A DNA stretch of 64,000 nucleotides, from the NCBI GenBank assembly GCA_017541375.1, contig JAFXZE010000005.1:448153-512152 (forward strand), in the 5' to 3' direction. Positions within the stretch are counted from its first letter, which is position 1; the number at the start of each line of letters is the position of its first letter. Positions 3,359 to 28,904 of this stretch are shown here, in pieces. The DNA is from Clostridia bacterium (GTDB lineage: Bacteria > Bacillota > Clostridia > Christensenellales > UBA1242). The position numbers were made by a program, and so were the translations under genes. Below the pieces are notes generated by a model. The model was not told the origin of the DNA. It worked only from the letters and a program-made list of their open reading frames with translations, and searched no databases.

Positions 3359-4704
3359 TGGCTAAGAAAAAAAGTAAAGGGAAATTTATAGCTTTTTTGG
3401 TGGCTGGATTGGGTGTATTTGTATTGGGATTTGTGTTGGGATTTGGCGGATTAATTTATCTAAATGCTCCCCAATATGATGAACTAAAAGTAAATGGCGT
3501 ACCAATAGAAGAAGTAAATGATACTTTTTATAGAGACAATGATAAATCGCTTGATGTGAAAACAGCTGATGTAGGATATCAACCAGAAACTGAAACAAAT
3601 ACGGCTGAAACTACAGATCATGGAGATGAAACTCAATCAGAAACAGTTCACAATAATCTGGCAGTAGAAAATGCAGGGATTTCAATTCACTTTTTAGAAC
3701 TTGGCAATAAATATACTGGAGATTGCACATATATAAAGACAGACACTTGCGATATCCTTATTGATTGTGGTTCAAAAGCTACTAGTGTGCCATATGTATC
3801 GGCTTACCTAAATCAGTATGTGTCAGATGGAAAACTTGAGTATGTGATTATTACTCATGCTCATGAAGATCACTATGCGGGTTTTGCTACATCAAAGTTT
3901 GAAGAAAGCATTTTTGGTTTGTATGAATGTCAAACAATTATTACATTTAGCCAAACTAACCAGAAACCAACCTCTACAAAATATAAAAATTATGTTACCA
4001 ACCTAAATCAAGAAATAGCGTCAGGAGCCCATCACTACACCGCATTAGAATGTGTAAATGGCGCTATGGAGGAAGGAACTGCAGTTGATGGAGATAATCC
4101 TCAGGCAGTATTTAATGTGGGTAGTCATGTGACTATGACTATAGTAAATAGTTTGTTCTACACTAAGAAAGCATCTACAGAAAATGACTATTCGGTATGT
4201 ACATTATTTACTTATGATGAAGGGGTTCATTCACACAACTATTTCTTCTCTGGTGATCTTGAAAAAGAAGGTGAAGACTGGCTGGCAGCAAATGCTGGAC
4301 TTCCTACTAAAGTAGATTTGTACAAAGCTGGACACCATGGCTCTAAGACATCATCAAATGAAAATTTGATGGCTGTTCTTCAGCCAAAAACCATTTGTGT
4401 GTGTTGCTGCGCAGGTAGCCCAGAATATACAAAAACTAATGAAAATCAATTCCCAACTCAAGCCTTTATTGATCGTGTGGCTCAATATACAACTGATGTT
4501 TATGTGACAACTTTGTGCCTTGATTATAAAGCAACAGACCCAGAAAAGCAATTTACTTCGATGAATGGAAATATTGTTTTCTTAGCAAAGCTTGACACAA
4601 TTGACCTAAAGTTTTCTAATAATTCAGTGCGACTGAAAGATACTGAGTGGTTTAAAACAACTAGAACTATACCAAATGCATGGAGACAAGAAACTGGAGT
4701 GTAG
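3358..4704 (+). CDS. MBL-fold metallo-hydrolase, ComEC C-terminal-domain type, membrane anchored
   Basis: HAHEDH (HxHxDH) motif and a late AGHHGS motif. N-terminal TM helix. Translationally coupled to the upstream gene. Confidence 0.8.
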   Translation: MAKKKSKGKFIAFLVAGLGVFVLGFVLGFGGLIYLNAPQYDELKVNGVPIEEVNDTFYRDNDKSLDVKTADVGYQPETETNTAETTDHGDETQSETVHNNLAVENAGISIHFLELGNKYTGDCTYIKTDTCDILIDCGSKATSVPYVSAYLNQYVSDGKLEYVIITHAHEDHYAGFATSKFEESIFGLYECQTIITFSQTNQKPTSTKYKNYVTNLNQEIASGAHHYTALECVNGAMEEGTAVDGDNPQAVFNVGSHVTMTIVNSLFYTKKASTENDYSVCTLFTYDEGVHSHNYFFSGDLEKEGEDWLAANAGLPTKVDLYKAGHHGSKTSSNENLMAVLQPKTICVCCCAGSPEYTKTNENQFPTQAFIDRVAQYTTDVYVTTLCLDYKATDPEKQFTSMNGNIVFLAKLDTIDLKFSNNSVRLKDTEWFKTTRTIPNAWRQETGV

Positions 4705-4935
4705 AGAAAAAAGAGTCTATTAGATAGGCTTTTTTTGTTTTGTCAATAGAACAATGTAGAAAAAATCAAAATTAAAAATGTGGAAAACTCAAAATTTTTT
4801 TTACTCAAAAATTGGGATAAAGTGAAAATTTAATATTATGTGAAAATTCTCGTAATATAAAAAAAGAAATAGAAATTTTTTTGAAAAATTGGTAAACAAA
4901 TCCAATTTTAATTTGTGCATTTTGCACAAAAAATA

Positions 4936-4984
4936 ATACTATATATTGTGTTTTTAGTTATGGTATTGACACAACATATTGTGT
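4936..4984. promoter_or_regulatory. two NrdR-box operators upstream of nrdD
   Basis: atactatatattgtgt (4936-4951) and acacaacatattgtgt (4969-4984) both fit the 16-nt NrdR palindrome acaCwAtATaTwGtgt. They are spaced about 33 bp apart. Box 2 overlaps the -35 element and the spacer. Confidence 0.7.
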
Positions 4985-4994
4985 TTTGTATAAT
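4966..4994 (+). promoter_or_regulatory. sigma-A type promoter of nrdDG
   Basis: TTGACA (4966-4971), 17-nt spacer, TATAAT (4989-4994). Confidence 0.65.
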
Positions 4995-5024
4995 TAAACT
5001 AAAATATGAGACAAGGAGTACAAA

Positions 5025-17512: not shown

Positions 17513-17599
17513 GCCGAGATGGCGAAATTGGCAGACGCAGTAGACTCAAAATCTGCCGGGAGCAATCCCATGAGGGTTCGAGTCCCTCTCTCGGCACCA
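17513..17599 (+). tRNA. tRNA-Leu (anticodon CAA) with encoded CCA
   Basis: Acceptor gccgaga/tctcggc. Anticodon stem gtaga/tctgc with loop CUCAAAA. Long variable arm. T-arm gaggg-ttcgagt-ccctc. CCA at 17597-17599. Confidence 0.9.
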
Positions 17600-17648
17600 T
17601 TACAAATCTAAGTCGAATACTTAAAATTAAGCTTTTGATTTGGTTTTG

Positions 17649-19139
17649 CTAGATATAAAATTTAACTATCATATCTTTTAGTATAGTTCTATTTTGTATT
17701 AAACTTTTCATTTTAGTTTTGAGAGTTAAAAAAGAGCCCTGATTTGTGTCAGGACTCTTTATTGTTGGAGTATTAAAAGTTATCTCTAATCTGTCATTAA
17801 AACACGTAATTTGATGTATAACTGTATCTATTAATAATTGGGGTTCTAGAAGTAATGCTTCTTTGTAAAACTCACGAATAGTTTTTTCTGAAATTTTAAT
17901 TTCAGATTTACATTTTTCAATTAATAGTTGTTTGTCAATTTCTTCTAGTTGCTTTTCTAGTTCATGCATTCGATTATTAGTTGTATTATTAATTATGCCT
18001 TGCTCAACAGCTTTCAGGATATTGCTTAGCGCCACTTCTGCTTGATGTTTACTTTTTTCTAGCATAGTTATTGTTGAATTGTGATTAGGTGATTTTTGTA
18101 TATCTAGTAGTTGTTTTACAATTTTATTCATTATTGGCGGTTTGGATAATTCTGTTATAATTACATTAAGTACAAACTCTTCTAATACTTCTTGCCTTAT
18201 TGTTTCCTTTATACAACCATTTCTATACTTTTTAATTCCAAGGCATTTGTAATAGTGTATCGTTTTACCAAGTTTTGTAGTTCCTGATTCAGCGCTTATC
18301 GGTTTGCCACAGTAACCACATACTAATTTATTTTTAAGTAGGTAAACAGTCTTTACACTATTTTTGCCATAGTGGTTAATTTTTCTTTTTGATTTTACTT
18401 TTTCGAAAGTATCTTTGTCAATTATTTGCGGATACGTATTTTCATACTTTAATCCGTCTTTTTCATAAGTTCCAGTATATCGCTCATTTCTTAACATGTT
18501 GTATATAGTATTCTTTGCAAATGGTTTACCATTATTATAAATGTTCTTAGAGTTAAGGTCTTCAATTATGTTTCTTACAAATTTTCCCTTAGCATATTGA
18601 TTAAACATGTATTGCACAATTTCAATTTTAGTTTCGTCAATAACAATTTTTCTTCCGTCAAGTTTATATCCATAAGGTAATGAGCCACCAGTAAAATGAC
18701 CTTTTAGTCTAGTTTCGTGCATACCACGTTTTACCTTTTGAGATAATTCTGCAGAGTAGTATTCAGCCATTCCTTCGAGCAAGGATTCTAGTATTATACC
18801 CTCAGGAGTGTCTGGAATATTTTCCATAGCTGACAGTAGTTTAACTCCATTATCTTTTAGTATCTTTTTGTATTTTGCATTTTCATATTTATTTCGACTA
18901 AAGCGGTCTATTTTATATACAATAACATATTGCCAATTGTTACTTGCACTATCTTTTATCATTTGTTGAAAATCAGGACGATTGTCATTTGTTCCAGTCA
19001 TTGCTCTATCAATATAGGTATTTAAAACTGCAATACCATTTCGGTTTGCATATTCATTACAAACACGAAGTTGCCCTTCAATGCTTTGCTCAGTTTGTGA
19101 ATCTGAACTATATCTTGCATAGATTACAGCTGTTTTCAT
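17649..19139 (-). CDS. large serine recombinase (integrase)
   Basis: N-terminal resolvase domain AVIYARYSSDSQ with the catalytic Ser. Recombinase domain, a Zn-ribbon CGYCGK...YYKC and a coiled-coil C-terminus. RBS aaggag. Confidence 0.9.
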   Translation of the reverse strand: MKTAVIYARYSSDSQTEQSIEGQLRVCNEYANRNGIAVLNTYIDRAMTGTNDNRPDFQQMIKDSASNNWQYVIVYKIDRFSRNKYENAKYKKILKDNGVKLLSAMENIPDTPEGIILESLLEGMAEYYSAELSQKVKRGMHETRLKGHFTGGSLPYGYKLDGRKIVIDETKIEIVQYMFNQYAKGKFVRNIIEDLNSKNIYNNGKPFAKNTIYNMLRNERYTGTYEKDGLKYENTYPQIIDKDTFEKVKSKRKINHYGKNSVKTVYLLKNKLVCGYCGKPISAESGTTKLGKTIHYYKCLGIKKYRNGCIKETIRQEVLEEFVLNVIITELSKPPIMNKIVKQLLDIQKSPNHNSTITMLEKSKHQAEVALSNILKAVEQGIINNTTNNRMHELEKQLEEIDKQLLIEKCKSEIKISEKTIREFYKEALLLEPQLLIDTVIHQITCFNDRLEITFNTPTIKSPDTNQGSFLTLKTKMKSLIQNRTILKDMIVKFYI

Positions 19140-19164
19140 TTTTATTCTCCTTTTGATTTTATTC

Positions 19165-19310
19165 TGTCTTTCGACATAAGCGATGAAAACGAAAATGGAT
19201 TTAATTTTTGTATCCTATTAGTTAGTTTATTAGTAGTCAAAGGTTGCTTAGCAATTAACTTTACCTTTGACAACTAAGAGTTTTCGTTTAAACTTCGCTT
19301 TAGAAAGACA
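19165..19310. repeat. nested inverted repeats between the rep and recombinase genes
   Basis: The outer imperfect arms 19165-19195 and 19281-19310 pair in three runs (tgtctttc..aagcga..aaacgaaaa). An inner perfect 9-bp hairpin gtcaaaggt/acctttgac lies at 19236-19271. Confidence 0.75.
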
Positions 19311-20171
19311 TTAAAAAGCTTTAGGTAGCTTATCAATCAGCTCTTTATTGACATTTCCAAATATTTCTCCAGTACTCAAATCAGTACATCTAAAGTTATC
19401 AAACAAAAGTATTTTCCTGTCTTCTTGACCTATAGTGCACACAACATCATCTTCTAAAATATCGGTTACAAAATAAGTTTGTAAGTGTCTAGAGAAAATG
19501 ACTTTTTCTCCAGTCTTACGAATGTATTTTAAAATGTATCTTACAGCTTCTTGAGTCATAATTGGATTCAATTCTTTAAAATCATTTCTTCCAAATCGCT
19601 CTAAGAAGAAAGTGTTTTGATGAGTAACTTGCATATTGTGGATTCTAGTTGAATAGTCCTTGACTTCTTCTATTTGACCAACCATTTCTTTGATAACAAA
19701 AATACCATGAAAGTGTAATCGTTTTAACTTTGGGCTTCTTTCAAAAACCCCAATGTATTTCCAGCCTTTGCGATTAGAAAGGTGCCTTATACAATTTAAA
19801 AACTTAACTCTAAATTCATCTTCGGAAAGTTTACTTGAGTCATAAGTAAAGGTACAAAAATGTGTCCATTGTTGAAGTCCTATTTTTCGACTCAATCTCG
19901 TTTGTCTAACAATCCTATTTCTCTTATCTTTTTCAATTACATTATTTACAATATCCTTTGTTCTCTCAATATCATTTACCTGTTTATTGAGTTCTTTTAT
20001 AATCTGTTCTTTGGTGCTTTTATTTGCACACACATTTAGCAGTTTCTTTACTTTCTCTTCTAGTTCATTAGGTATAATTTTACCTTTCCGCTTTTTCCAA
20101 CTTTGTTCTACATGAGGAATCCCTATGTAATGGCTACCATCAAAATAAACTTTTGTTTTTAAATAACTCAT
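19311..20171 (-). CDS. HUH-superfamily rolling-circle replication initiator (Rep)
   Basis: Motif I FCTFTYD, motif II HFHGIFVI (HUH) and motif III YILKYIRK (catalytic Tyr). RBS aaggag precedes the ATG at 20171. Confidence 0.75.
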   Translation of the reverse strand: MSYLKTKVYFDGSHYIGIPHVEQSWKKRKGKIIPNELEEKVKKLLNVCANKSTKEQIIKELNKQVNDIERTKDIVNNVIEKDKRNRIVRQTRLSRKIGLQQWTHFCTFTYDSSKLSEDEFRVKFLNCIRHLSNRKGWKYIGVFERSPKLKRLHFHGIFVIKEMVGQIEEVKDYSTRIHNMQVTHQNTFFLERFGRNDFKELNPIMTQEAVRYILKYIRKTGEKVIFSRHLQTYFVTDILEDDVVCTIGQEDRKILLFDNFRCTDLSTGEIFGNVNKELIDKLPKAF

Positions 20172-20572
20172 TTTTAACTCCTTAATTTTTTTTGAATTAA
20201 AAAAGGACATAGAAAAAATACTAAATTTTTCCTACGCCTTAAATGTTAACTCTGCCGTACATTGTGCTTACGGATGCCCAGTTGTAAAACAACTCACATA
20301 TCTATCTCATCTTTTTCATTTTGCGTTTCCTAATTTAATTCAATAATCATTTTATCACAAAAATTTTCAAAAGCCAATGATTCTACTTGATTTCACTTGA
20401 CCAATTAGAGAAGAAAATAACTTTTCTTTATGGGCTTAAGGAAATCAATGATTTTTACAATAAAAAATACTATGCGAAAGGCATAGTATAAATGGCAAAG
20501 ACTTTTGCAAAAACAATACAATAAAGCGAAGAAGATGAATAGAAAGTAATAGATATTCATAGACAGAGCATG

Positions 20573-20712
20573 CGCCGAGTGAAGAAAAAAGAGTGTTGTG
20601 GTAAGCCTGCGCACAAACTCTTTTTCACTCGGCGTTTTGTTAGGGAAACAGAAGTTAGTGTGCTTGTCTTCGGTGGAGCGAAGCGACACCGACTTGTATA
20701 AGACAAGCACAC
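20573..20712. other. two long GC-rich hairpins in the rep-methylase intergenic region; candidate origin or structured RNA
   Basis: Hairpin 1 spans 20573-20634 (cgccgagtgaa..aaaagagt / actctttttcactcggcg). Hairpin 2 spans 20658-20712, with a 13-bp perfect stem gtgtgcttgtctt/aagacaagcacac and an inner stem cggtg/caccg. Confidence 0.6.
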
Positions 20713-20823
20713 GTTTAAAATCCAAATAAATTTTTATAATAAAATATCGAAATACCCATAAATGTTATACAAATATAAATTTTTATGATATAATATATAA
20801 AACAAAACAAGAGGAGTCTTACT

Positions 20824-22995
20824 ATGGATGTTGCTGAAACAATATTAAACATAATAAATGACAATAATTTAACACAGCAAACTTTTGCCAAAAGAATTAA
20901 TGTGAATCAATCCCAAATTAGTGATTGGACTTCTGGCAAAAGCAAACCTAGTTTTGATGCAATTAAAGATATATGTTTAGCATTTAATTTATCTGCTGAT
21001 TATGTAATAGGATTAAAAGATATAAAAACCAGCAAAACAAAATTCAAACTTTCAAACAGAAGATATACTGGAAGTAAATTGAGAATAAAAGATTGGATAA
21101 AAGATTTAATAACTAAAAATTGTCCAAATGCAAAATCATTTTGTGATATTTTTGCAGGAACAGCTGTTGTTTCTGATGAACTATTAAACGAATATGATAC
21201 ATTTATCTTAAATGATTTACTTTATTCAAATGAAATTATTTATAAAGCTTTTTATAAAAATGAAGAATTTGATTTAAACAAATTATTTGAATATCAAACG
21301 AAATATCAATTATTGAATAAAGACAATTTAATCGAAAACTATGTATCAATAAATTTTGGTGATAAATATTTTGAAATGGGTGATGCAAGAGCTATTGGAT
21401 ATATTAGACAAGATATTGAGGATAATAAAAAATTCTTAAATGAAAGAGAATATGCAATTCTGCTTGCTTCATTATTATATTCTTTTGATAGATGTGCAAA
21501 TACTGTAGGTCATTATGAAGCTTATTTTAAAAACAAAATAATAGACAGAACTTTTAAATTTGAGTTAATTACACCTTATGACACTTTGGAGATGAATAAA
21601 AAGTTTTGTATTTATAGAAGAGATGCTAATGAACTTGCCACTGAAATTAGTTCGGACATAGTTTACATTGATCCACCATACTCTTCTCGACAATATAGTA
21701 GATTCTATCATGTTTTAGAGAATATAACTAAGTGGGAAAAACCCAAATTATTTGGTTCAGCACTGAAACCAGCTCCAGAAAACATGAGTGAATATTGTTC
21801 TTCTTCAGCAAAAAACGCTTTTAGAGATTTAGTAAATAAATTAAATTGTAAATATATAGTTGTATCTTACAACAATACATACAATTCTAAAAGTAAATCA
21901 TCAGAAAATAAAATGTTGCTCGAAGATATAGTGGAGATTTTGTCAGAAAAAGGTCAAACAAAAAAATATGAAATGCCTTTAAAGGCTTTTAATGCAGGAA
22001 AAACTAATATTGATAATCATAAAGAATTAATCTTTATAACAGAAGTTGGTAAATTTGCTGAAAGCAAAAAAGATTTAAATCGTTCTCCATTTTTTTATGT
22101 TGGCGATAAATATAAACTAATGCCTCAATTATTAAAAATCTTCCCTAAAAACATAGATACTTATTTTGAGCCTTTTTGTGGTGGTGGTAGCCCATTTTTA
22201 AACATTGTTGCAAATAAATATGTTTTAAATGATATTGACGAATATATGATTAAATTACATAAAATGCTCATAAATTACTCCGTAATGCCGGATATGTTCT
22301 ACTCTATTATAAAAAACATAGAAACAGAATATAATTTAAGTGCGTCAAGATATCAAGACATTATTCCTCAAAATTTAAAAGATTTGAATCCTAAAACTTA
22401 TTTTGCAAAGTTTAATAAAGATGCTTATTCTAGGATGAGAAATGCTTTTAACAAAGATAAGTCAAATGATGTGTTATTGTATTTACTTCTTATATATGGA
22501 TTTAATAGAATGTTAAGATTTAATTCAAAAGGCGATTTTAATCTTCCTGTTGGAAATGTTGACTTTAATCAAAATGTTGAAGATGCAATAAATTCATATT
22601 TTTCATTTGTACAAAACAAGGACATATCACTTTCTTCATTAGATTTCAGAGAATATATAAAAGTTCAAAGATTTAATAAGAATGATTTTATATATCTAGA
22701 TCCACCATATTTGATTACGAATTCTGAATATAACAAATTGTGGACAGAAAAAGATGAAATAGATTTATTAACACTACTGGATGAGTTAAATGAGAAAGAA
22801 ATTAGGTTTGCGATTTCAAATATGATTACCACTAAAGAAAAAACAAACGAAATCTTTTTAAAATGGGCTCAGAAGTATAATATATATAATATTAATAGTA
22901 ATTATATTAGTTATCATGATAATACAAATAAAATAAGTAAGGAGGTTTTAGTCACAAATTATGACAAAAGAAAAAAATCAGGAAAGAAAGATTAG
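20824..22995 (+). CDS. HTH(XRE)-fused tandem N6-adenine DNA methyltransferase (two Dam/D12-class modules)
   Basis: N-terminal HTH (QQTFAKRINVNQSQISDWTSGK). Module 1 has RYTGSK...FCDIFAGTA...IDPPY. Module 2 has YVGDKYKL...FEPFCGGGS...LDPPY. Promoter TGaTATAAT lies at about 20787. Confidence 0.85.
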   Translation: MDVAETILNIINDNNLTQQTFAKRINVNQSQISDWTSGKSKPSFDAIKDICLAFNLSADYVIGLKDIKTSKTKFKLSNRRYTGSKLRIKDWIKDLITKNCPNAKSFCDIFAGTAVVSDELLNEYDTFILNDLLYSNEIIYKAFYKNEEFDLNKLFEYQTKYQLLNKDNLIENYVSINFGDKYFEMGDARAIGYIRQDIEDNKKFLNEREYAILLASLLYSFDRCANTVGHYEAYFKNKIIDRTFKFELITPYDTLEMNKKFCIYRRDANELATEISSDIVYIDPPYSSRQYSRFYHVLENITKWEKPKLFGSALKPAPENMSEYCSSSAKNAFRDLVNKLNCKYIVVSYNNTYNSKSKSSENKMLLEDIVEILSEKGQTKKYEMPLKAFNAGKTNIDNHKELIFITEVGKFAESKKDLNRSPFFYVGDKYKLMPQLLKIFPKNIDTYFEPFCGGGSPFLNIVANKYVLNDIDEYMIKLHKMLINYSVMPDMFYSIIKNIETEYNLSASRYQDIIPQNLKDLNPKTYFAKFNKDAYSRMRNAFNKDKSNDVLLYLLLIYGFNRMLRFNSKGDFNLPVGNVDFNQNVEDAINSYFSFVQNKDISLSSLDFREYIKVQRFNKNDFIYLDPPYLITNSEYNKLWTEKDEIDLLTLLDELNEKEIRFAISNMITTKEKTNEIFLKWAQKYNIYNINSNYISYHDNTNKISKEVLVTNYDKRKKSGKKD

Positions 22996-24556
22996 TGAAA
23001 GAAAAGCAGAAAGAAAACCATTATCTTTTTCAACAACAATGAGAAATCCAGAAAGAATAGCGGGTTTTTTAAATTGTGTTTTACCATTTGAAGGACAATT
23101 TCTAACGAATGATATTATTAATGAAATAATTATTAAAGTTATATCAGAAAAACTTTATCATACTATGTATGAATTCAGAGTACCGAAATATAAAGATATA
23201 TATGTTAATCCAGATTTATCGTTTACAAGAAAGCAAGTTGAAGATATTATTAAAAATAGCCCTCAAATACATAAAGAAGCAGGATTTGATAAAGGATGGT
23301 CATCAAGGTTTGATACTTGGTATGAATTTCCCCAGGAATTGGGATTTATTAGATATGAAATTGGTAAACCTATTATTATCTCTCAAACTGGACATATGTT
23401 GATCGATGCTTTCAATGAAGCACAACCTAATAATGAAAAGATTCAAGCAGTTTTCTTAAATGCATTGATAAAATATCAAACAGATAATCCTTTTAAGAAG
23501 AATTTAAATAGCAATTGTCCTTTAATGCTTACTTTAAAAACAATACAAGAATTAAAAAAAGTAGATAAGAATAGTGCCGGTATTCATAGACAAGAATTAT
23601 CTCTTATAATATGTTGGCCTGACTATAATTATAAACAACTTACTAAAAAGATAATTGAATTAAGGAAAAAGTATGGTTATAACATTTCAAATGAAATTAT
23701 ATATGCTGAATGTATGAATTTATTAGAAGCTGGCGTTGATAAAGAAAAACAATTCAAAATGTCTAAAATCATCAGTGAAGCTGTTGATGAGTTTATTAGG
23801 AAAATGCGTATTACTGGAATATTTTCTTTAAGAGGAAATGGGAGATTTTTAGATATTAATAACTTTGAAAAACAAATAATTAGTTACATTATAAACAATT
23901 ATCCAACACACCAAAAATTTTCAGATAAAGAATTATATTTTAATCACATTTCTAATATTGACCCTAAAATTATTGAGAATGTAAAATCAATTGAGATTGA
24001 CAAAGTAGAAGTTAAAGAACAAGCTTTAGTTAAATGGGCAAATTATTTTAGTAAAAAAGATATTGAAAAGGAATTGATGCTATTAAGTAAATCAGGAAAA
24101 TCATCTAATGAAATATTAAAAGTTATAGATACACCGACTAGATTAGAGTTTTTAATAAGTATTTCGCTAAAACAACATTTTTGTGATGCAAAAATAATAC
24201 CCAATTATAAAATTGATGATGAAGGATTGCCAACATCAACTGCAACAGGAGGAAAAGCAGATATAGAGTGTTTTGATAAAGATTGTACCCCTATTGTTGA
24301 AGTAACATTAATGACTTCAAAAGCGCAGTCTATAAATGAAATTCCAGGAATAACTAGGCACTTACAGGAAAGACAAATGAAATATAAGGATTCAAAGGTT
24401 TTTTCGTTATTTATTGCTCCACATATTCACTCAGAAACAATGTATATGATAGAATTTAGTAAATTTCGGTCAAATATAGATATTATACCATATACAATAA
24501 TTGAGTATATAAAGCACTTAACAATAAAAAAGTCACTTTTATCATTTTTGAAATAA
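22961..24556 (+). CDS. AlwI/BstNBI-family type IIS restriction (or nicking) endonuclease
   Basis: Blocks alignable from memory to N.BstNBI: STTMRNPERI..L.FEG, RITGIFSLRGNGRFL, GGKADIEC...IVEVTLMTSK and FSLFIAPHI. Overlaps the methylase gene by 35 nt. Confidence 0.75.
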   Translation: MTKEKNQERKISERKAERKPLSFSTTMRNPERIAGFLNCVLPFEGQFLTNDIINEIIIKVISEKLYHTMYEFRVPKYKDIYVNPDLSFTRKQVEDIIKNSPQIHKEAGFDKGWSSRFDTWYEFPQELGFIRYEIGKPIIISQTGHMLIDAFNEAQPNNEKIQAVFLNALIKYQTDNPFKKNLNSNCPLMLTLKTIQELKKVDKNSAGIHRQELSLIICWPDYNYKQLTKKIIELRKKYGYNISNEIIYAECMNLLEAGVDKEKQFKMSKIISEAVDEFIRKMRITGIFSLRGNGRFLDINNFEKQIISYIINNYPTHQKFSDKELYFNHISNIDPKIIENVKSIEIDKVEVKEQALVKWANYFSKKDIEKELMLLSKSGKSSNEILKVIDTPTRLEFLISISLKQHFCDAKIIPNYKIDDEGLPTSTATGGKADIECFDKDCTPIVEVTLMTSKAQSINEIPGITRHLQERQMKYKDSKVFSLFIAPHIHSETMYMIEFSKFRSNIDIIPYTIIEYIKHLTIKKSLLSFLK

Positions 24557-24593
24557 AAGTTAGTATAGCTTTATTAAGCTTATCACTAATCAT

Positions 24594-24627
24594 AAAAAAC
24601 AGTCATGAATAATAGTGACTGTTTTTA
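24594..24627. terminator. bidirectional terminator between the convergent REase and KAP genes
   Basis: Stem acagtca/tgactgt, flanked by an A-run and a T-run. Confidence 0.75.
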
Positions 24628-24642
24628 AAATTAATTTCTAAC

Positions 24643-25926
24643 CTATCTTAAGTCGTTCGTCAGTTTAATAATTCTATTGACATTGTGAGGATAATCCCAG
24701 TCTATAGGTGTGTTAGAATTAAGTATTTTTTCCGTATTATCTTCAGGTCTATTTATAAAATTTGCTAAACTAGAAATATTAATATTTCTAACATTTTCAA
24801 ATAAACCAATTATATTTAGCAAAGCTGCTTGACCAATTGTATACATTTTCAATGTGTCAATAACTCTGGTAAAATGAGTTGGGGCTATATCATTTAAAAA
24901 GTTTTGGAATCTTGATTCACTCAAAACTATCGTTTCTGGGGTATAAGTGTATTGTAATTCCTTACCAAAATAGGTTTTAAAAATTGAATTTTGAAATTTT
25001 CTTAACAACAGCAAAAAAGCTATTTGTATTGGATAAAAGTAATAATAGCGCATAACTTGATTGAATCCATCCCTTTGTTCTTTACAAATCATATTTAGTT
25101 GTTGAATGAGTTTTTTTATATCCCTTGCAGCAATATTTTGAGATTCAATCATTTCTGCGATAAGTTCTTTCACTTCATAGTCAGGATCTGTATGAAAACT
25201 CATTAAAGAAATCGCGAATTTTTTGTTGGTGTCATATGGTAAATCAATTTCATATTGAACAAGCTTAGATAAATACCCATGTACATCTGTATACTCACCA
25301 AATTCATTTTTTATTGCATTTTCAAGTTGTTCATGATCAATGGCTATAACTATAATAAGATTAGGAATATTCAGAAAGTGGTATAGTGATTCTAGAACCT
25401 TAATTTGATATGCTGGTAAGCAACGATCTAATTCATCAACCAGTAATATAGTTTTTTTATTAGAGCAAAACTCTTCCAAGGTTTTTTTACAATTTACAAC
25501 GGCCTTTTTAAATGCATCATACTCTTCAAAAAAATCTGTATTTTCAGCAAATGCTGTCAAATCTATTTTGTGAGCATTTGCAAGGGTTTTTAAAACTGAA
25601 TTTAATATACATTTTACAACTTTACCGGCAGTTTTTTTGATTGCGCCACCTTTGCTAGGAATTTTACTGATACAATGCATTATTGGCACTATTGGTGCAT
25701 CAAAGAATTTGTTTTCCCATGCATCATAAGTTAAAATTTTAAACTTTTTTTCTGTTTCATTTTTTTCATGAATAAAATTGAATAAAGTACTTTTACCTGA
25801 TCCATACTTTCCATTTATAGTTATAGTTAAACCTTGTCCATCTTGATTACCATAACTATCAAAAATATCGAATAACGTATTAAGGAAATTAGTTCTCTCC
25901 AATTTGTCATCTTTAATTTGAATCAT
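24643..25926 (-). CDS. KAP-family P-loop NTPase
   Basis: Walker A GKYGSGKST, YDAWEN motif and Walker B LLVDELDRC, which is typical of KAP. RBS ggagg. Confidence 0.85.
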   Translation of the reverse strand: MIQIKDDKLERTNFLNTLFDIFDSYGNQDGQGLTITINGKYGSGKSTLFNFIHEKNETEKKFKILTYDAWENKFFDAPIVPIMHCISKIPSKGGAIKKTAGKVVKCILNSVLKTLANAHKIDLTAFAENTDFFEEYDAFKKAVVNCKKTLEEFCSNKKTILLVDELDRCLPAYQIKVLESLYHFLNIPNLIIVIAIDHEQLENAIKNEFGEYTDVHGYLSKLVQYEIDLPYDTNKKFAISLMSFHTDPDYEVKELIAEMIESQNIAARDIKKLIQQLNMICKEQRDGFNQVMRYYYFYPIQIAFLLLLRKFQNSIFKTYFGKELQYTYTPETIVLSESRFQNFLNDIAPTHFTRVIDTLKMYTIGQAALLNIIGLFENVRNINISSLANFINRPEDNTEKILNSNTPIDWDYPHNVNRIIKLTNDLR

Positions 25927-26208
25927 ATTTTTTCCTCCATTATATTAATAATTTTTTCATAAATCCAAAAATTAACTCGTTTGGATTAGTAATTAATCTT
26001 TTTCGTCATGTGCGTTTTGTTTTTTCAACTCCCCTAAACATGACTCGCAATAAACACTACATGTTAACTATGCCTCCTTTGTGTATAATTAAAACTATTT
26101 GAAAAACAAAAAAACATCGCCAAACTAGAAGTATTAAAAATTCAAAAAAGTTTGAAAATTGTTAAAAATCTATTGACAATGATAACTTGAATATATTATA
26201 CTTAATAT

Positions 26209-26345
26209 ATAATGATATACTTGTATCAAGTCATTCATTATCAACCCATTGTTCCTGTATTTCGAATTCTGTTTGATTTCCAGTCTGAGAATTCGCTTTT
26301 CAAACATTGGATAAGCAGTATCAAGTTTTTGATGCTGTTTTTTAT
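26209..26345 (+). ncRNA. candidate small RNA, defined by a promoter and a terminator
   Basis: TTGACA 26173-26178, 18-nt spacer, TATACT. Internal 8-bp hairpin cgaattct/agaattcg (26263-26295). Terminator hairpin 26316-26337 plus a T-run. There is no RBS for the embedded 49-codon ORF. Confidence 0.35.
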
Positions 26346-26479
26346 TGGCTTAGCATCATGAACCAAAACTTCTTATCTACTTGCAATTTAACATATGAGC
26401 CTATATCTGTCAAGCAAAATTTCCAATTATTTAAAATTTTTATAAAAAATAGTAAAAGCTTTAATTTTTAGGATAAAAT

Positions 26480-26512
26480 AAAAGACCAAATCGAAATTCG
26501 ATTTAGTCTTTT
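26480..26512. terminator. bidirectional terminator hairpin in the gene-poor region
   Basis: 14-bp stem aaaagaccaaatcg/cgatttagtctttt with one mismatch. An A-run lies upstream and a T-run downstream. Confidence 0.65.
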
Positions 26513-26733
26513 ATTTTCACCTAAAACCTGATGCAATCAAATAACAGAAAGCTAAATAATTAGAATACATTAACTCTTAAATTTAATCCTCATTTTTATC
26601 TCTTAATTTAACATGTGTGTAAAGTTTAGCAAAATTCTCAGATTGTCAATTTTTAATTTCGATGTTTGCTAAAACTTATCAAAATACCTTATGTTGACAA
26701 TAGGGAAAAGCTAGTGAAAAAATTGAGGGAGTC

Positions 26734-26762
26734 TTGACAATTTGGGCGTTTTATGGTATAAT
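26734..26762 (+). promoter_or_regulatory. consensus sigma-A promoter for the small ORF
   Basis: TTGACA, 17-nt spacer, TGgTATAAT. Confidence 0.7.
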
Positions 26763-26791
26763 AAAATAGTCAGAAGAAGGGGGATTGGAAA

Positions 26792-26962
26792 ATGAGAATG
26801 AGTTCTGTGCTAAAGCTCGGCGTCCTTGCTGTATTAGTTGGAGGAGTAACATATGAAACTGTTAAAACAGGGCAATATCTTGAATGTGGTGTTGGCTTAG
26901 CTGCTGGTACAATTATCGGTCTTGCAATTAGACATTTAGAACGCAAAGAAGGTTATAGATAA
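26792..26962 (+). CDS. 56-aa glycine-zipper-like small membrane peptide
   Basis: Not in the ORF track. RBS aaggggga lies about 8 nt upstream. Sequence MRMSSVLKLGVLAVLVGGVTYETVKTGQYLECGVGLAAGTIIGLAIRHLERKEGYR. Followed by hairpin ggttat/ataacc and a T-run. Confidence 0.55.
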   Translation: MRMSSVLKLGVLAVLVGGVTYETVKTGQYLECGVGLAAGTIIGLAIRHLERKEGYR

Positions 26963-27299
26963 TAACCCTCTTTTTTCTTATTTCAAAATCAATTCGAACT
27001 AAAGAAAAGATAAAATAAAAATGAAAAAATGGAAAGTACAAACCAAACAATCCTTACTATTGTTCGGATTGCTTTTGCTTGGAGCACCAGTAAAAGTCAA
27101 TTAGATCTGGGGATATGAACAAAGTGAGTAGCGGTTCAAAAAGGTGCTTCTAGCACAATGTTCTAAGGGGGTATTGCTAACTCTTCAGGGGGATAACGTT
27201 ACACAAGAGAAGTGGAGGTGAATCCCTTTCTCAACCCCAGTAGATAAGCACTGCTCGTTTAATTTGACTTTTAAAAGTTGTTGTAATATAATATCCAAT

Positions 27300-27860
27300 A
27301 TGAATTTAAAACCTTGGGTAAGATATTATATACTAATTTTGTTTGTTATTACATTGACATTTTTTGTGTTATCTTTTGTAATTGATAATAATGCAATTGA
27401 AATTATAGCTGTAACTATGGTTACGCTTTTTTATCATTCGTGTATTAGGCCGATGACAGGCACTTTAATTGATATGAAATATCATAACAACATGAATTTC
27501 AATTTGTGGTGGTTTCGGGAAAGGAAATTTGAAAAACATCTATTTAAGATGCTTAAAGTGAAGCGCTGGAAAAACATTATTCCCACTTATGACAAAGTAG
27601 CGTTTGACATTAGAAATAAAAATATAGAACAAGTTTTAGGAGCAACTTGCCAAGCTGAAATTGTTCATGAGATAATGTTTATCCTTGCGTTTGTGCCACT
27701 ATTATTAATTATACCATATGGGCAAGCAGCCATTTTTATAATTTCATCAATACTTTGTGCTATCATTGATTTGATTTGTATTATAGTACAAAGATTTAAC
27801 CGTCCAAGATTGATAAAATTCTATAGCAAATACTTAAAAAACAATATCAAAAAAGATTAA
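27300..27860 (+). CDS. polytopic membrane protein resembling the glycosyl-4,4'-diaponeurosporenoate acyltransferase family
   Basis: VKRWKNIIP...QAEIVHE...IVQRFNRPRL resembles that family's conserved blocks (recalled, not searched). There is no clear RBS. A TATAAT lies just upstream of ATG 27300, so a leaderless mRNA is possible. Confidence 0.5.
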   Translation: MNLKPWVRYYILILFVITLTFFVLSFVIDNNAIEIIAVTMVTLFYHSCIRPMTGTLIDMKYHNNMNFNLWWFRERKFEKHLFKMLKVKRWKNIIPTYDKVAFDIRNKNIEQVLGATCQAEIVHEIMFILAFVPLLLIIPYGQAAIFIISSILCAIIDLICIIVQRFNRPRLIKFYSKYLKNNIKKD

Positions 27861-27891
27861 GTCCGAATGACTTAATCTTTTTTGATGGTAA

Positions 27892-28758
27892 TTATTTTTC
27901 TGTATCGATTTTGTATACTTTTTCGCCATCAAATTTGTACCCGAGGAGTTTTCCATTTGCTATCCAATTTTCAATCTTTTGTTTAATTTTATTATGTTCT
28001 TCTACACTTTCGTATTTTTTGTTGTATAAAATCATTATATCTTTTAATGATATTTCGTTATGTTTTTTTATTGTTTTTATTACAAATAATTTTGAAATTA
28101 TAAAAAATATTACAGAACTAATAATACAAGCTGCTCCAAAAATAATCATTAATATTTTTTCACTATTTTCCATGCTATAATCGTTTAATGTTCCCCAAAA
28201 ACTAACTAAGCCAACTATAATGAATACAATACTAACAATAGATAGCCCTTTTTTAGTTTTGGCTTTTTGATAAATGTCATATTCATCAGGGCTATAACCA
28301 TTTATTAATTGATACCAATCTTCTTCAATTCTTTTTAGATCGGATGTAGGACAAACCTTTTTTGCGTTATTAAAATCTTTTTCATAGTCAGAGTAGGCAT
28401 ATTTTTCGAGGAATTCAGAGCTTCTTTGGGCTAGTAGTTTGGCTTTTGCGCGTAACCACCATGCCTTGTAATTGGTAGGATCAGAATCAATACATTTAGA
28501 AAATACTTGGATAGCTTTGGCAAAATCACCTAAATTGATGAATGCTATTCCGTTTTTTATTAATTCTTCATAGTCAAGCCCATCATTTCCATAAATGTTT
28601 TTAGTTATATTCTGTGTTGTATTATTATTAATGTTATGTATTTCTGGTTTTACTACTACTTTGTTTCCACAATATAAGCATATATACGTATTATCATCCG
28701 ATTGCGTTTTTGTTAGTTCGCCACCACATTCATCGCACTTTAGTTTTTCTAGAGGCAT
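27892..28758 (-). CDS. Zn-ribbon / TPR-like / 2-TM hypothetical protein
   Basis: RBS aaggagag precedes the ATG at 28758. N-terminal CDECG...CLYCG. TPR-like segment AKAIQVFSKCIDSDPTNYKAWWLRAKA. Two TM helices and a small C-terminal domain. Confidence 0.65.
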   Translation of the reverse strand: MPLEKLKCDECGGELTKTQSDDNTYICLYCGNKVVVKPEIHNINNNTTQNITKNIYGNDGLDYEELIKNGIAFINLGDFAKAIQVFSKCIDSDPTNYKAWWLRAKAKLLAQRSSEFLEKYAYSDYEKDFNNAKKVCPTSDLKRIEEDWYQLINGYSPDEYDIYQKAKTKKGLSIVSIVFIIVGLVSFWGTLNDYSMENSEKILMIIFGAACIISSVIFFIISKLFVIKTIKKHNEISLKDIMILYNKKYESVEEHNKIKQKIENWIANGKLLGYKFDGEKVYKIDTEK

Positions 28759-28904
28759 AAATATTCTCTCCTTTTTGTTTTTCATAATTATTTTATCAAA
28801 TATAATTTTTTAAGTCAATTTTTTGTAAGTATTTTCTGTGATATATTTAAATAAATTGTTTGCCTATTGTTAGGCTTTATGATAAACTAACAATGAGGTG
28901 CATT

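Follow-up and report, generated by a model that had tools for sequence, protein, structure and literature searches.

The 64-kb stretch of contig JAFXZE010000005.1 studied here (the window, in whose positions coordinates are given unless an L-locus is named) comes from a Clostridia bacterium. It carries, on an integrative element of ~10.3 kb, a gene for a KAP P-loop NTPase beside 1.3 kb of DNA that is poor in open reading frames (ORFs). The gene adds a new member to a family already catalogued as a candidate for single-gene defence, and the limits of its element are defined. On balance we favour the reading that this is a stand-alone KAP candidate defence gene whose expression is controlled by a cis-antisense small RNA (sRNA), and that a gene for a 56-aa membrane protein travels on the same element as a passenger. 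Comparison of sequences indicates that the link between KAP and the RNA is real in a subset of the KAP family. The gene and its putative control region comprise:

24643-25926, minus strand: KAP P-loop NTPase, 427 aa, PDC-S20-like and soluble (Pfam, PADLOC, AlphaFold2 (AF2) model)
25927-26413: KAP control cassette, i.e. facing promoters, sRNA and leader
26385-26413, minus strand: promoter candidate for KAP (TTGACA-17-TAAATT plus TG), which faces that of the sRNA; 10/12 scan match
26173-26202, plus strand: sRNA promoter (TTGACA-18-TATACT), 11/12; its -35 box with extension, TTGACAATGAT, is identical in L033
26209-26346, plus strand: candidate cis-antisense sRNA of ~138 nt, with two stem-loops followed by an intrinsic terminator (26313-26340) and a U-run
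25927-26378, minus strand: predicted 5' leader of the KAP mRNA, ~450 nt, from the promoter scan
26057-26079, minus strand: Shine-Dalgarno (SD)-ATG-TAG start-stop, with a strong SD, AAGGAGG, at 26079-26073, a 10-nt spacer, ATG at 26062-26060 and TAG at 26059-26057
26466-26526: hairpin and predicted bidirectional terminator, with 30-nt arms that are 90% complementary and T-runs on both strands; z = -5.76

Promoters were identified by a consensus scan and scored out of 12, and a score of at least 9/12 was the threshold for statements about promoter gaps. The two promoters of the cassette converge, and on the predicted transcription start sites (~26209 on the plus strand and ~26378 on the minus strand) the antisense RNA lies wholly inside the 5' leader of its target, as in known cis-antisense cassettes. 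The sRNA is fully complementary to the 5' part of the predicted KAP leader. It folds with -36.8 kcal/mol, and the fold is better on the plus strand (z = -5.08 vs -3.47 on the minus strand). Beyond the overlap the KAP leader shows no special structure (z = +0.49), and there is no promoter of at least 9/12 on the KAP strand between 25927 and 26172. Rfam has no match to 26207-26348 even at E <= 10, and none at E <= 0.1 to the related loci L033, L159 and L156.

The sRNA has a clear homologue in L033, a Clostridia metagenome-assembled genome from sheep colon whose KAP is 45% identical to that of the window. It was found by scanning the gaps upstream of KAP homologues for promoters and terminators and then aligning; BLAST missed it because the homology is too patchy.

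L033 4456-4597, minus strand: sRNA homologue of ~140 nt with a TTGACA-17-TAATAT promoter and three hairpins; z = -6.07

This RNA is on the strand opposite KAP, ~370 nt upstream of it, i.e. in the same place and orientation as in the window. The two sRNAs share the -35 box and extension TTGACAATGAT, the segments ATACTTGTAT and TCATTATCAAC, and the GAATTCT/AGAATTC arms. All 27 of the 27 base pairs predicted by RNAalifold are kept, with four compensatory and three one-sided changes. In controls where the 3' partner strand was slid, pairing fell to 31-59% and compensatory changes to 0-1. The antisense RNA is thus structured, has its own terminator and is kept by compensatory change. When the two upstream regions are compared, shared collinear 9-mers occur only in the sRNA unit with its promoter, and the surrounding non-coding DNA is unalignable.

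A covariance model built on the window and L033 copies scores 156 bits for each of them. In 689 kb of control loci baited with TrxB the best score was 26.6 bits (E = 0.23), 195 kb of viral KAP loci gave no match at E <= 1, and in the remaining KAP loci and the rest of the window the best non-self matches were partial and terminator-like, scoring 25.6 bits or less (E >= 0.2). Viral contigs scanned for exact patterns of the sRNA also gave no matches; KAP relatives on viral contigs are 22-33% identical and lack the sRNA. Of the several short transcripts that the sequence-only reading had predicted from promoters and terminators, one (26209-26346, plus strand) is a conserved structured RNA, present in L033 and, more weakly, in L159.

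The KAP of L159 is 66% identical to that of L033. Two perfect 12/12 promoters stand face to face at L159 164-192 (plus strand) and 391-363 (minus strand), and between them lies an RNA of ~115 nt with three hairpins and a terminator (z = -5.73). The 5' end of this RNA, AUACAAUGAUAUCUUUGU, resembles that of the window RNA; its first stem-loop keeps 7/7 pairs with a swap of U-A to C-G, and its second has outer UGAA/UUCA pairs in common with L033. It is probably a homologue of the sRNA. A 50-aa ORF follows at L159 506-658, and then KAP. In L033 the KAP-strand promoter is at 4341-4369 (11/12), and a 73-aa DUF2188 gene (4770-4991; E = 2.3e-20) ends at 4991, ahead of the KAP start at 5001. DUF2188 is linked to defence loci in a passage of 10.1101/2022.04.27.489752 that cites Burroughs & Aravind 2020.

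The window, L033 and L159 thus have a common order of parts, i.e. a KAP-strand promoter, the antisense sRNA gene with its terminator toward that promoter, the sRNA promoter, a slot for a small ORF, and KAP. The predicted pairs of start sites are ~4595 (minus) and ~4376 (plus) in L033 and ~356 (minus) and ~199 (plus) in L159, and the convergently transcribed intervals are ~170 nt in the window, 220 nt in L033 and 158 nt in L159. From the sRNA promoter to the point where the small-ORF slot begins, none of the three loci has a promoter of at least 9/12. KAP starts ~10 nt past the stop of the small ORF in L033 and L159. A terminator-like hairpin ahead of the cassette is clear in the window (26466-26526); in L159 it was read by eye.

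The small-ORF slot holds the SD-ATG-TAG in the window, the 73-aa DUF2188 gene in L033 and the 50-aa ORF in L159. The minus-strand SD followed by ATG-TAG, to which the sequence-only reading had drawn attention, is indeed present at 26079-26057, and it occupies the position of a real small ORF in the relatives. No remnant of DUF2188 is detectable at this slot in the window. We note that AGGAGG without a long ORF behind it is not rare, as this is the case at 8 of the 15 AGGAGG sites in the window.

Several observations weigh against control by the sRNA. There is one clear homologue, L033; the RNA of L159 scores 17.3 bits with the covariance model, which is not above background, and because of this its homology is argued from architecture and short motifs. 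Ten of ~13 distinct KAP contexts lack the sRNA; among them are those of the closest KAPs (55% identical), where a short proximal promoter is present. The sRNA is therefore dispensable for KAP function, and would be an optional regulator and not a part of the effector. The 25 public copies of the locus are 99.9-100% identical, and because they are nearly identical no covariation within the species is obtainable. Likeness of the sRNA does not follow likeness of KAP: the sRNAs of the window and L033 are ~75% alike (mean column identity) and their KAPs 45%, whereas L033 and L159 have KAPs that are 66% identical and RNAs that have diverged. This mismatch suggests that the sRNA cassette moves or evolves independently of KAP. 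The sequence at 25948-25943 is a perfect TATAAT, 17 nt ahead of where KAP starts, and could be a promoter without a -35 box. Promoter-like sites in the ORF-poor stretch are not above the number in shuffled sequences (24 vs 19.9 +/- 4.5), and the promoters and terminators are consensus predictions. Finally, the defence role of the 427-aa KAP family has candidate status only, and this includes its PDC label.

Some of these points would fit a stretch that is simply debris, made up of relic genes and chance promoter-like sites in AT-rich DNA, with KAP driven by an unrecognised proximal promoter. The promoter-like total, the TATAAT just before KAP and the commonness of orphan AGGAGG would all be expected of such DNA, as would an ATG-TAG where relatives have real ORFs and the absence of any structural, coding or homology signal from 26983-27263. 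By contrast, debris would not account for an sRNA with ~75% mean column identity beside a KAP of 45% identity, amid non-coding DNA that cannot be aligned, nor for helices held by compensatory changes, nor for the purifying selection on the 56-aa gene described below. We regard decay as an improbable explanation of the stretch as a whole.

If the sRNA does control KAP, the arrangement suggests how. The sole good promoter on the KAP strand (26413-26385) lies ~450 nt upstream of KAP and faces the strong sRNA promoter (26173-26202). Because the KAP promoter lies beyond the sRNA gene, KAP transcripts would read through that gene and carry its full complement in their 5' leader. Convergent transcription, RNA-RNA pairing (with cleavage of the duplex or attenuation), or both, might then keep the output of KAP low or switchable. 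After the sRNA complement the transcript would pass the small upstream ORF slot, here shrunk to SD-ATG-TAG, before reaching KAP. The bidirectional terminator would insulate the cassette, with the 56-aa gene a separate passenger and the rest of the spacer having no supported feature. The analysis shows what the genes are, where the borders of the element lie, that the RNA is conserved and structured and that the peptide gene is independent; we infer transcription, the regulatory effect and defence activity at the KAP locus.

Countertranscript cassettes of this general kind include hok/sok, the copy control systems of pT181 and pIP501, and prgQ/prgX of pCF10. Like the KAP cassette they have facing promoters 160-220 bp apart, a structured and terminated antisense RNA directed against a 5' leader, and a small ORF in the leader. 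The KAP cassette differs from them in having no relation to them by sequence or in Rfam, and in its target, which is an ATPase and not a small toxin or Rep. The overlap also contains no ribosome-binding site, and no attenuator was recognised. It is not a type I toxin-antitoxin system, since the strand opposite the sRNA carries no conserved ORF in any of the three loci (window, L033, L159), and the ORF found there in the window lacks a ribosome-binding site. Nor is it type III (ToxIN-like): there is no tandem array in 24500-27400, and KAP is an NTPase and not an endoribonuclease toxin.

The sequence-only reading had proposed that KAP acts together with a small RNA, as a toxin-like effector or antitoxin RNA. 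An RNA is linked to KAP in a subset of the family and its layout fits a regulator, but there is no sign of an effector or antitoxin RNA. The corresponding proposal here, modelled on the exclusion of T4 by hok/sok, is that the sRNA and KAP are a toxin-antitoxin-like abortive-infection pair, where an unstable sRNA restrains a harmful KAP and the shut-off of transcription by a phage releases it. The layout of an antisense RNA between facing promoters in up to three KAP loci is consistent with this, and the sRNA promoter is at least as strong as that of KAP (11/12 vs 10/12 in the window; 12/12 vs 12/12 in L159). So are the insulation of the cassette by the bidirectional terminator and the defence-island setting on a mobile element. 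However, toxicity of KAP has no support here, and most KAP homologues, the closest included, lack the sRNA. The sRNA overlaps the far 5' leader and not the ribosome-binding site of KAP or of the small-ORF slot. When target pairing was predicted by RNAduplex, cognate pairs were no better than shuffles, and a single cross-locus 11-mer match was at the level of chance. The Enterococcus KAP that has been tested does not act by abortive infection (PMC13552941). We therefore think it unlikely that a subset of stand-alone KAP genes is gated by a dedicated, previously undescribed cis-antisense sRNA in the manner of an RNA-antitoxin and ATPase-effector pair, and likewise that this locus is a toxin-antitoxin-like pair. 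Were it so, gut Clostridia would have a new class of immune switch, controlled by RNA and possibly working by abortive infection, in which loss of the short-lived sRNA during phage takeover frees the ATPase. We continue with KAP as a stand-alone candidate defence gene under sRNA control.

The identity of the KAP protein is clear. The 427-aa ORF matches Pfam KAP_NTPase (PF07693) with 105 bits against a cut-off of 20 over residues 30-279, and contains the motifs GSGKST (aa 42-47), YDAWEN (aa 67-72) and LLVDELDRC (aa 161-169). The gene for an AlwI-family restriction endonuclease (22961-24556, plus strand) converges on it and ends at 24556; the motifs and this position next to the restriction-modification (R-M) system agree with what had been read from the sequence. 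There are ~100 homologues (P0001-P0099) of about the same length (~427 aa) and 33-57% identity. Across 31 of these G42, G44, K45 and T47 of Walker A are invariant, as are L162 and D164-P171 of Walker B (LDELDRCLP), and S43 and S46 vary. The AF2 model (pLDDT 84.5) has a P-loop core, a helical insert (residues 79-156, amphipathic helices) and a helical C-terminal third, with ~150 aa after the NTPase core. In the KAP family the NTPase domain is described as frequently, but not universally, having inserted transmembrane helices (Aravind et al. 2004, in the citation given by PMC13552941). The window KAP lacks this family trait on hydropathy: it has no transmembrane segment, the Kyte-Doolittle maximum over 19 residues being 1.53 and lying on a core beta-strand.

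PADLOC has four PDC-S20 profiles that match KAP (E = 1e-48 to 3e-30), the best of which covers residues 5-332. The PDC systems are 145 'phage defence candidates' placed in PADLOC from a guilt-by-embedding screen (10.1101/2024.01.29.577857). KAP and PDC-S20 have in common the profile match (E = 1e-48), the stand-alone gene, a setting in defence or mobile contexts and the lack of a constant partner; in ~13 contexts KAP is a single gene with no obligatory neighbour. They differ in that the 464-position profile misses the last ~95 residues of KAP, and the antisense RNA is not in the definition of PDC-S20. The architecture, from the sequence a candidate uncharacterised module, is already classified, since PADLOC places it under an existing single-gene candidate. 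KAP is a stand-alone P-loop NTPase of the PDC-S20 kind and, as one protein, a candidate for defence against phages.

In 2026 KAP NTPases from Enterococcus and from gut metagenomes, each a single protein whose C-terminal region is uncharacterised, were reported to protect E. faecalis from phages (PMC13552941). Protection by EF_KAP requires Walker B and is not by abortive infection (PMC13552941). EF_KAP and three KAPs from gut metagenomes resemble the window KAP in being one protein with a P-loop domain and a C-terminal region, in occurring in Bacillota or the gut, and in lying with serine recombinases on mobile DNA (PMC13552941). Compared by description, EF_KAP has transmembrane helices and a C-terminal region of 322 aa, whereas the window KAP has none and ~150 aa; the recombinase on the window element is large, and that with the tested KAPs small. 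By analogy with these tested proteins, KAP may act as an NTP-hydrolysing oligomeric ATPase.

Other known systems are more distant. QatA and PifA share the KAP NTPase core with the window protein (PADLOC, E = 9e-21 and 3.5e-14, respectively), as partial matches, and PifA of the F plasmid has 720 aa against 427. The locus is not a Qat system: the NCBIfam QatA model gives 73.6 bits against a cut-off of 600, and a PADLOC scan of the methyltransferase, restriction endonuclease, 56-aa, CrtO-like, TPR and HD proteins found no QatB, QatC or QatD. Among solved structures the best match to the AF2 model is RdrA of RADAR (E = 4e-6, TM score 0.33-0.39), a ring-forming defence ATPase according to PDB entry titles, followed by ORC/Cdc6 AAA+ proteins. 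RdrA has ~800 aa and a TM score of only 0.33-0.39 to the window KAP, and no gene for an RdrB adenosine deaminase is present on the element, so the relation to RADAR is one of fold similarity only.

The sequence-only reading had found no recognisable effector partner for KAP, and comparison of ~13 distinct homologue loci bears this out. The neighbours of KAP are:

L012, L013 and L030: a 268-277-aa membrane protein with a Top1-type zinc ribbon
L032 and L034: ASCH and type II R-M
L036: HipA
L037: a PDC-S02/YhcG nuclease
L038: an M14 peptidase
L035: Rep of the ORF2/G2P family and a 69-aa ORF
L011, L031 and L156-158: nothing

KAP therefore has no constant protein partner, and a single-gene classification in PADLOC fits because its neighbours differ between contexts. 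The intergenic block of the window is not conserved as a whole beside KAP homologues, contrary to what a single module would predict, as neither BLASTN nor TBLASTX found a match to it in the compared contexts; BLAST of the whole block against phage and plasmid collections also gave nothing significant.

We note three features of these other loci. The membrane protein of L012 (5172-5978), L013 (5146-5979) and L030 (4146-4979) has four hydrophobic helices and a C-terminal Top1-type C4 zinc ribbon; its gene stops 22 nt ahead of KAP in all three, the two versions are 53% identical, and it is a clade-specific candidate partner. The possibility that the ORF-poor stretch is a decayed form of this partner, or of DUF2188, was discarded, as tblastn gave no signal in the window. 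A conserved ~80-aa helical protein (…FSKDKWKEYFNLDIEKGQLH…) with no Pfam family is encoded directly 3' of several KAP homologues and convergent with them, with a paralogue nearby in L011:

L011 7285-7524, L033 6315-6554, L034 3731-3985 and L156 3033-3272, all minus strand, and L032 28-264: genes for the ~80-aa protein

It was considered as a hidden partner of KAP and rejected, being absent from the window. The third feature precedes the closest KAP homologues, where an 11/12 promoter drives a segment of ~110 nt that ends in a tRNA-like T-arm, acceptor and CCA (…GGAGGTTCGAATCCTCTCTGGAACACCA):

L156 1450-1575, L158 1510-1635 and L011 5700-5828, minus strand: tRNA-like segment, with a terminator after it in L156 and L158

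Neither ARAGORN nor Rfam calls anything in this segment in the three loci. It could be the 3' fragment of a tRNA left by integration, or a tRNA-like RNA.

The mobile element that carries KAP has the following other features:

17513-17599, plus strand: tRNA-Leu(CAA), the chromosomal flank of the insertion site (ARAGORN; Rfam 54.5 bits)
17600-27890: integrative element, ~10.3 kb, with approximate ends (left 17600-17650, right 27814-27891)
17649-19139, minus strand: large serine recombinase, 496 aa (Pfam Resolvase, Recombinase and Zn_ribbon_recom; PHROG integrase E = 1.9e-108)
19311-20210, minus strand: HUH rolling-circle Rep of the ORF2/G2P family (Pfam PF23343, E = 1.1e-9), with motifs HFHGIF and YILKYIRK
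20824-24556, plus strand: type II R-M system (Pfam; PADLOC MTase_II E = 3.9e-129, REase_II E = 6.9e-169)
20824-22995, plus strand: double D12 N6A methyltransferase fused to a helix-turn-helix (HTH) domain (Pfam)
22961-24556, plus strand: AlwI-family endonuclease (Pfam)
27264-27860, plus strand: CrtO-like membrane acyltransferase, 186 aa, the last gene of the element (Pfam PF18927, E = 1.2e-24), with promoter at 27264-27292 and ATG at 27300

The borders of the element are observed directly in empty sites on two contigs of a sister taxon, found by a scan baited with the flanking TrxB protein. In L072 (83% nucleotide identity; L072 2737-2800) homology extends across the tRNA as far as window 17599 and begins again at 27921; the corresponding points for L073 (80%; L073 2690-2745) are 17623 and 28739, and L073 also lacks the gene for a TPR/zinc-ribbon membrane protein at 27892-28785. 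The insertion is thus ~17600-27890, and the ORF-poor stretch lies entirely within it, as do the 56-aa ORF and the CrtO-like gene. The mobile-element setting that had been read from the sequence is confirmed by these empty sites. The suggestion that the ORF-poor stretch is the junction of island and chromosome is excluded by the same contigs, with the right border at ~27814-27891, beyond the CrtO-like gene. The insertion has disrupted the terminator hairpin of the tRNA-Leu gene itself, and G+C content is 25-31% within the element and 33-40% in its flanks. A candidate for the crossover core is AATACTTAAAA, 11 nt long and directly repeated at 17616-17626 and 27829-27839. Look-ups of the exact KAP, 56-aa, CrtO-like and DUF378 proteins found no context free of the island, and all 25 public copies of the locus are 99.9-100% identical over it.

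The CrtO-like gene is also called as 186 aa in public contigs and is absent at the empty sites in L072 and L073. Its ATG (27300) is 8 nt past the -10 box of an 11/12 promoter and lacks an SD sequence, so from its sequence the mRNA is probably leaderless. In one sample (L007 5195-7419, corresponding to L018 1-2204, and L027) the methyltransferase gene is cut to 112 aa and preceded by a 624-aa ORF without a Pfam family, with the endonuclease, KAP and everything rightward identical; this sample has the R-M module with a variant left half. Two 27-nt direct repeats, 85% identical and 49 nt apart, lie at 20726-20801, immediately before the gene for the HTH-fused methyltransferase, and are a possible operator for autoregulation by the N-terminal HTH.

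The HUH Rep raises the possibility that the hairpin-rich DNA near KAP serves the element itself, as single- or double-strand origins or as oriT for the Rep, and not as RNA genes. The intergenic origins of rolling-circle plasmids and of Ff phage are ORF-free and hairpin-rich, and the hairpin at 26466-26526 is extreme (z = -5.8). Such origins usually adjoin rep, however, and here a separate intergenic region of 613 nt (20211-20823) does so. The sRNA unit recurs in L033 with no Rep within +/-5 kb, the window has no match to the L035 locus where Rep and KAP are neighbours, and the conserved promoter and terminator stem with compensatory substitutions are what is expected of a transcript. An origin in this position is accordingly very doubtful.

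The ORF-poor stretch itself (25927-27263) contains several independent units and is not one module. It has no ORF of at least 60 codons, as had been claimed, the longest being 58 aa on the minus strand and 56 aa on the plus strand. The four copies of TTGACAAT are at 26173 (plus), 26642-26649 (minus; the earlier position was one base off), 26694 (plus) and 26734 (plus). Eight copies in the window are an ordinary number (5.5 +/- 2.7 in shuffles), but the clustering of four of the eight within 570 nt is unusual. Two of the four boxes have a good -10 element, and those at 26642-26649 and 26694 lack a convincing one. Strong promoter matches, of which at least three had been expected, are found at 26734-26762 (12/12), 26173-26202 (11/12), 27264-27292 (11/12) and, on the minus strand, 26413-26385 (10/12 with TG). 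All three of the predicted terminator hairpins are present: that at 26313-26340, with its T-run, was detected by the scan, that at 26466-26526 was missed because it is too GC-poor, and a weaker one at ~26947-26975 precedes a T-run. Terminator-like sites are above shuffles (4 vs 1.0 +/- 1.1). Rfam has no match over 25800-27400 even at E <= 10.

Judged from its arms and T-runs, the hairpin at 26466-26526 would insulate the KAP cassette from the 56-aa gene. The Logan contigs L010 and L022 (also L003 and L005) end or start inside it, at 26480-26509. This break was considered as an element border and rejected: L010 and L022 are from one sample and overlap by exactly 30 nt (k-1), as expected of an assembly-graph effect at a near-palindrome.

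Beyond the hairpin lie:

26716-26982, plus strand: small-gene unit, with promoter 26734-26762 (12/12, extended -10), SD GGGGGA, ORF 26792-26962 and terminator ~26947-26975
26983-27263: spacer without an explained role, holding a 27-aa ORF (27021-27104) and a GC-richer stretch (27100-27260)

The 56-aa protein has two short hydrophobic helices (hydropathy 2.15 and 2.06 in 15-residue windows) and no family match in Pfam, NCBIfam, PADLOC or PHROGs. An exhaustive HMMER search gave one true relative, P0123 on contig L152 (78% amino acid identity), together with two weak matches to short stretches of proteins of >1000 aa. L152 aligns to the window only over 26716-26982 (81.5% nucleotide identity), with the weaker hairpin kept, flanks unrelated and no KAP. 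The 56-aa gene is an independent unit, as the homology does not extend past its own promoter and terminator and L152 lacks KAP. Substitutions between the two copies are 6/4/18 by codon position and dN/dS is 0.275, indicating purifying selection. The gene is, from this comparison, a portable small membrane-protein passenger, and its signals suggest that it is probably highly expressed. L152 does not share the promoter-like site that lies antisense to the 3' end of the gene, and for this reason its interpretation as a type I toxin-antitoxin gene is unsupported.

The sequence-only reading had also supposed that KAP acts with small membrane peptides, i.e. that it cooperates with the 56-aa and 27-aa products as membrane effectors. 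In favour of this, the 56-aa gene is genuine, with strong signals and a membrane-like product; in 23/23 contigs that carry it KAP is on the same element, 866 nt away, and some KAP homologues have the membrane/zinc-ribbon protein directly upstream. However, the window shows no similarity to that protein, the flanks of the peptide's single homologue (L152, 78%) are unrelated and include no KAP, and the 56-aa gene is found in no locus of a KAP homologue. It is also divergent from KAP, with the bidirectional terminator between them. Both small ORFs exist, as claimed, and the 56-aa one is constrained (dN/dS 0.275); the 27-aa signal-peptide-like ORF at 27021-27104 has no ribosome-binding site and no homologue. 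The independence of the 56-aa unit makes joint action with KAP extremely unlikely, and we retain the reading of KAP as a single-gene candidate under sRNA control.

The spacer (26983-27263) has no structural, coding or homology signal; folding z is -0.30 and -0.58 for the two strands, and there is no Rfam match. A riboswitch-like RNA at 27095-27262, whose helices were seen by eye, was rejected because the fold is not better than shuffles on either strand and Rfam gives no match.

Single-protein KAP NTPases have only recently been shown to defend Bacillota against phages. Should the sRNA leave KAP unaffected, the locus is simply one ordinary member of a catalogued candidate family. In either case a kilobase of mobile element that seems free of ORFs can consist of a mosaic of small independent transcription units, and this matters for the annotation of defence islands. 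If the assignment is correct, the sRNA would be an uncatalogued RNA family in uncultured gut Clostridia, with two clear members and one probable. The conserved antisense cassette would then be a testable handle on how a potentially costly immune ATPase is restrained.

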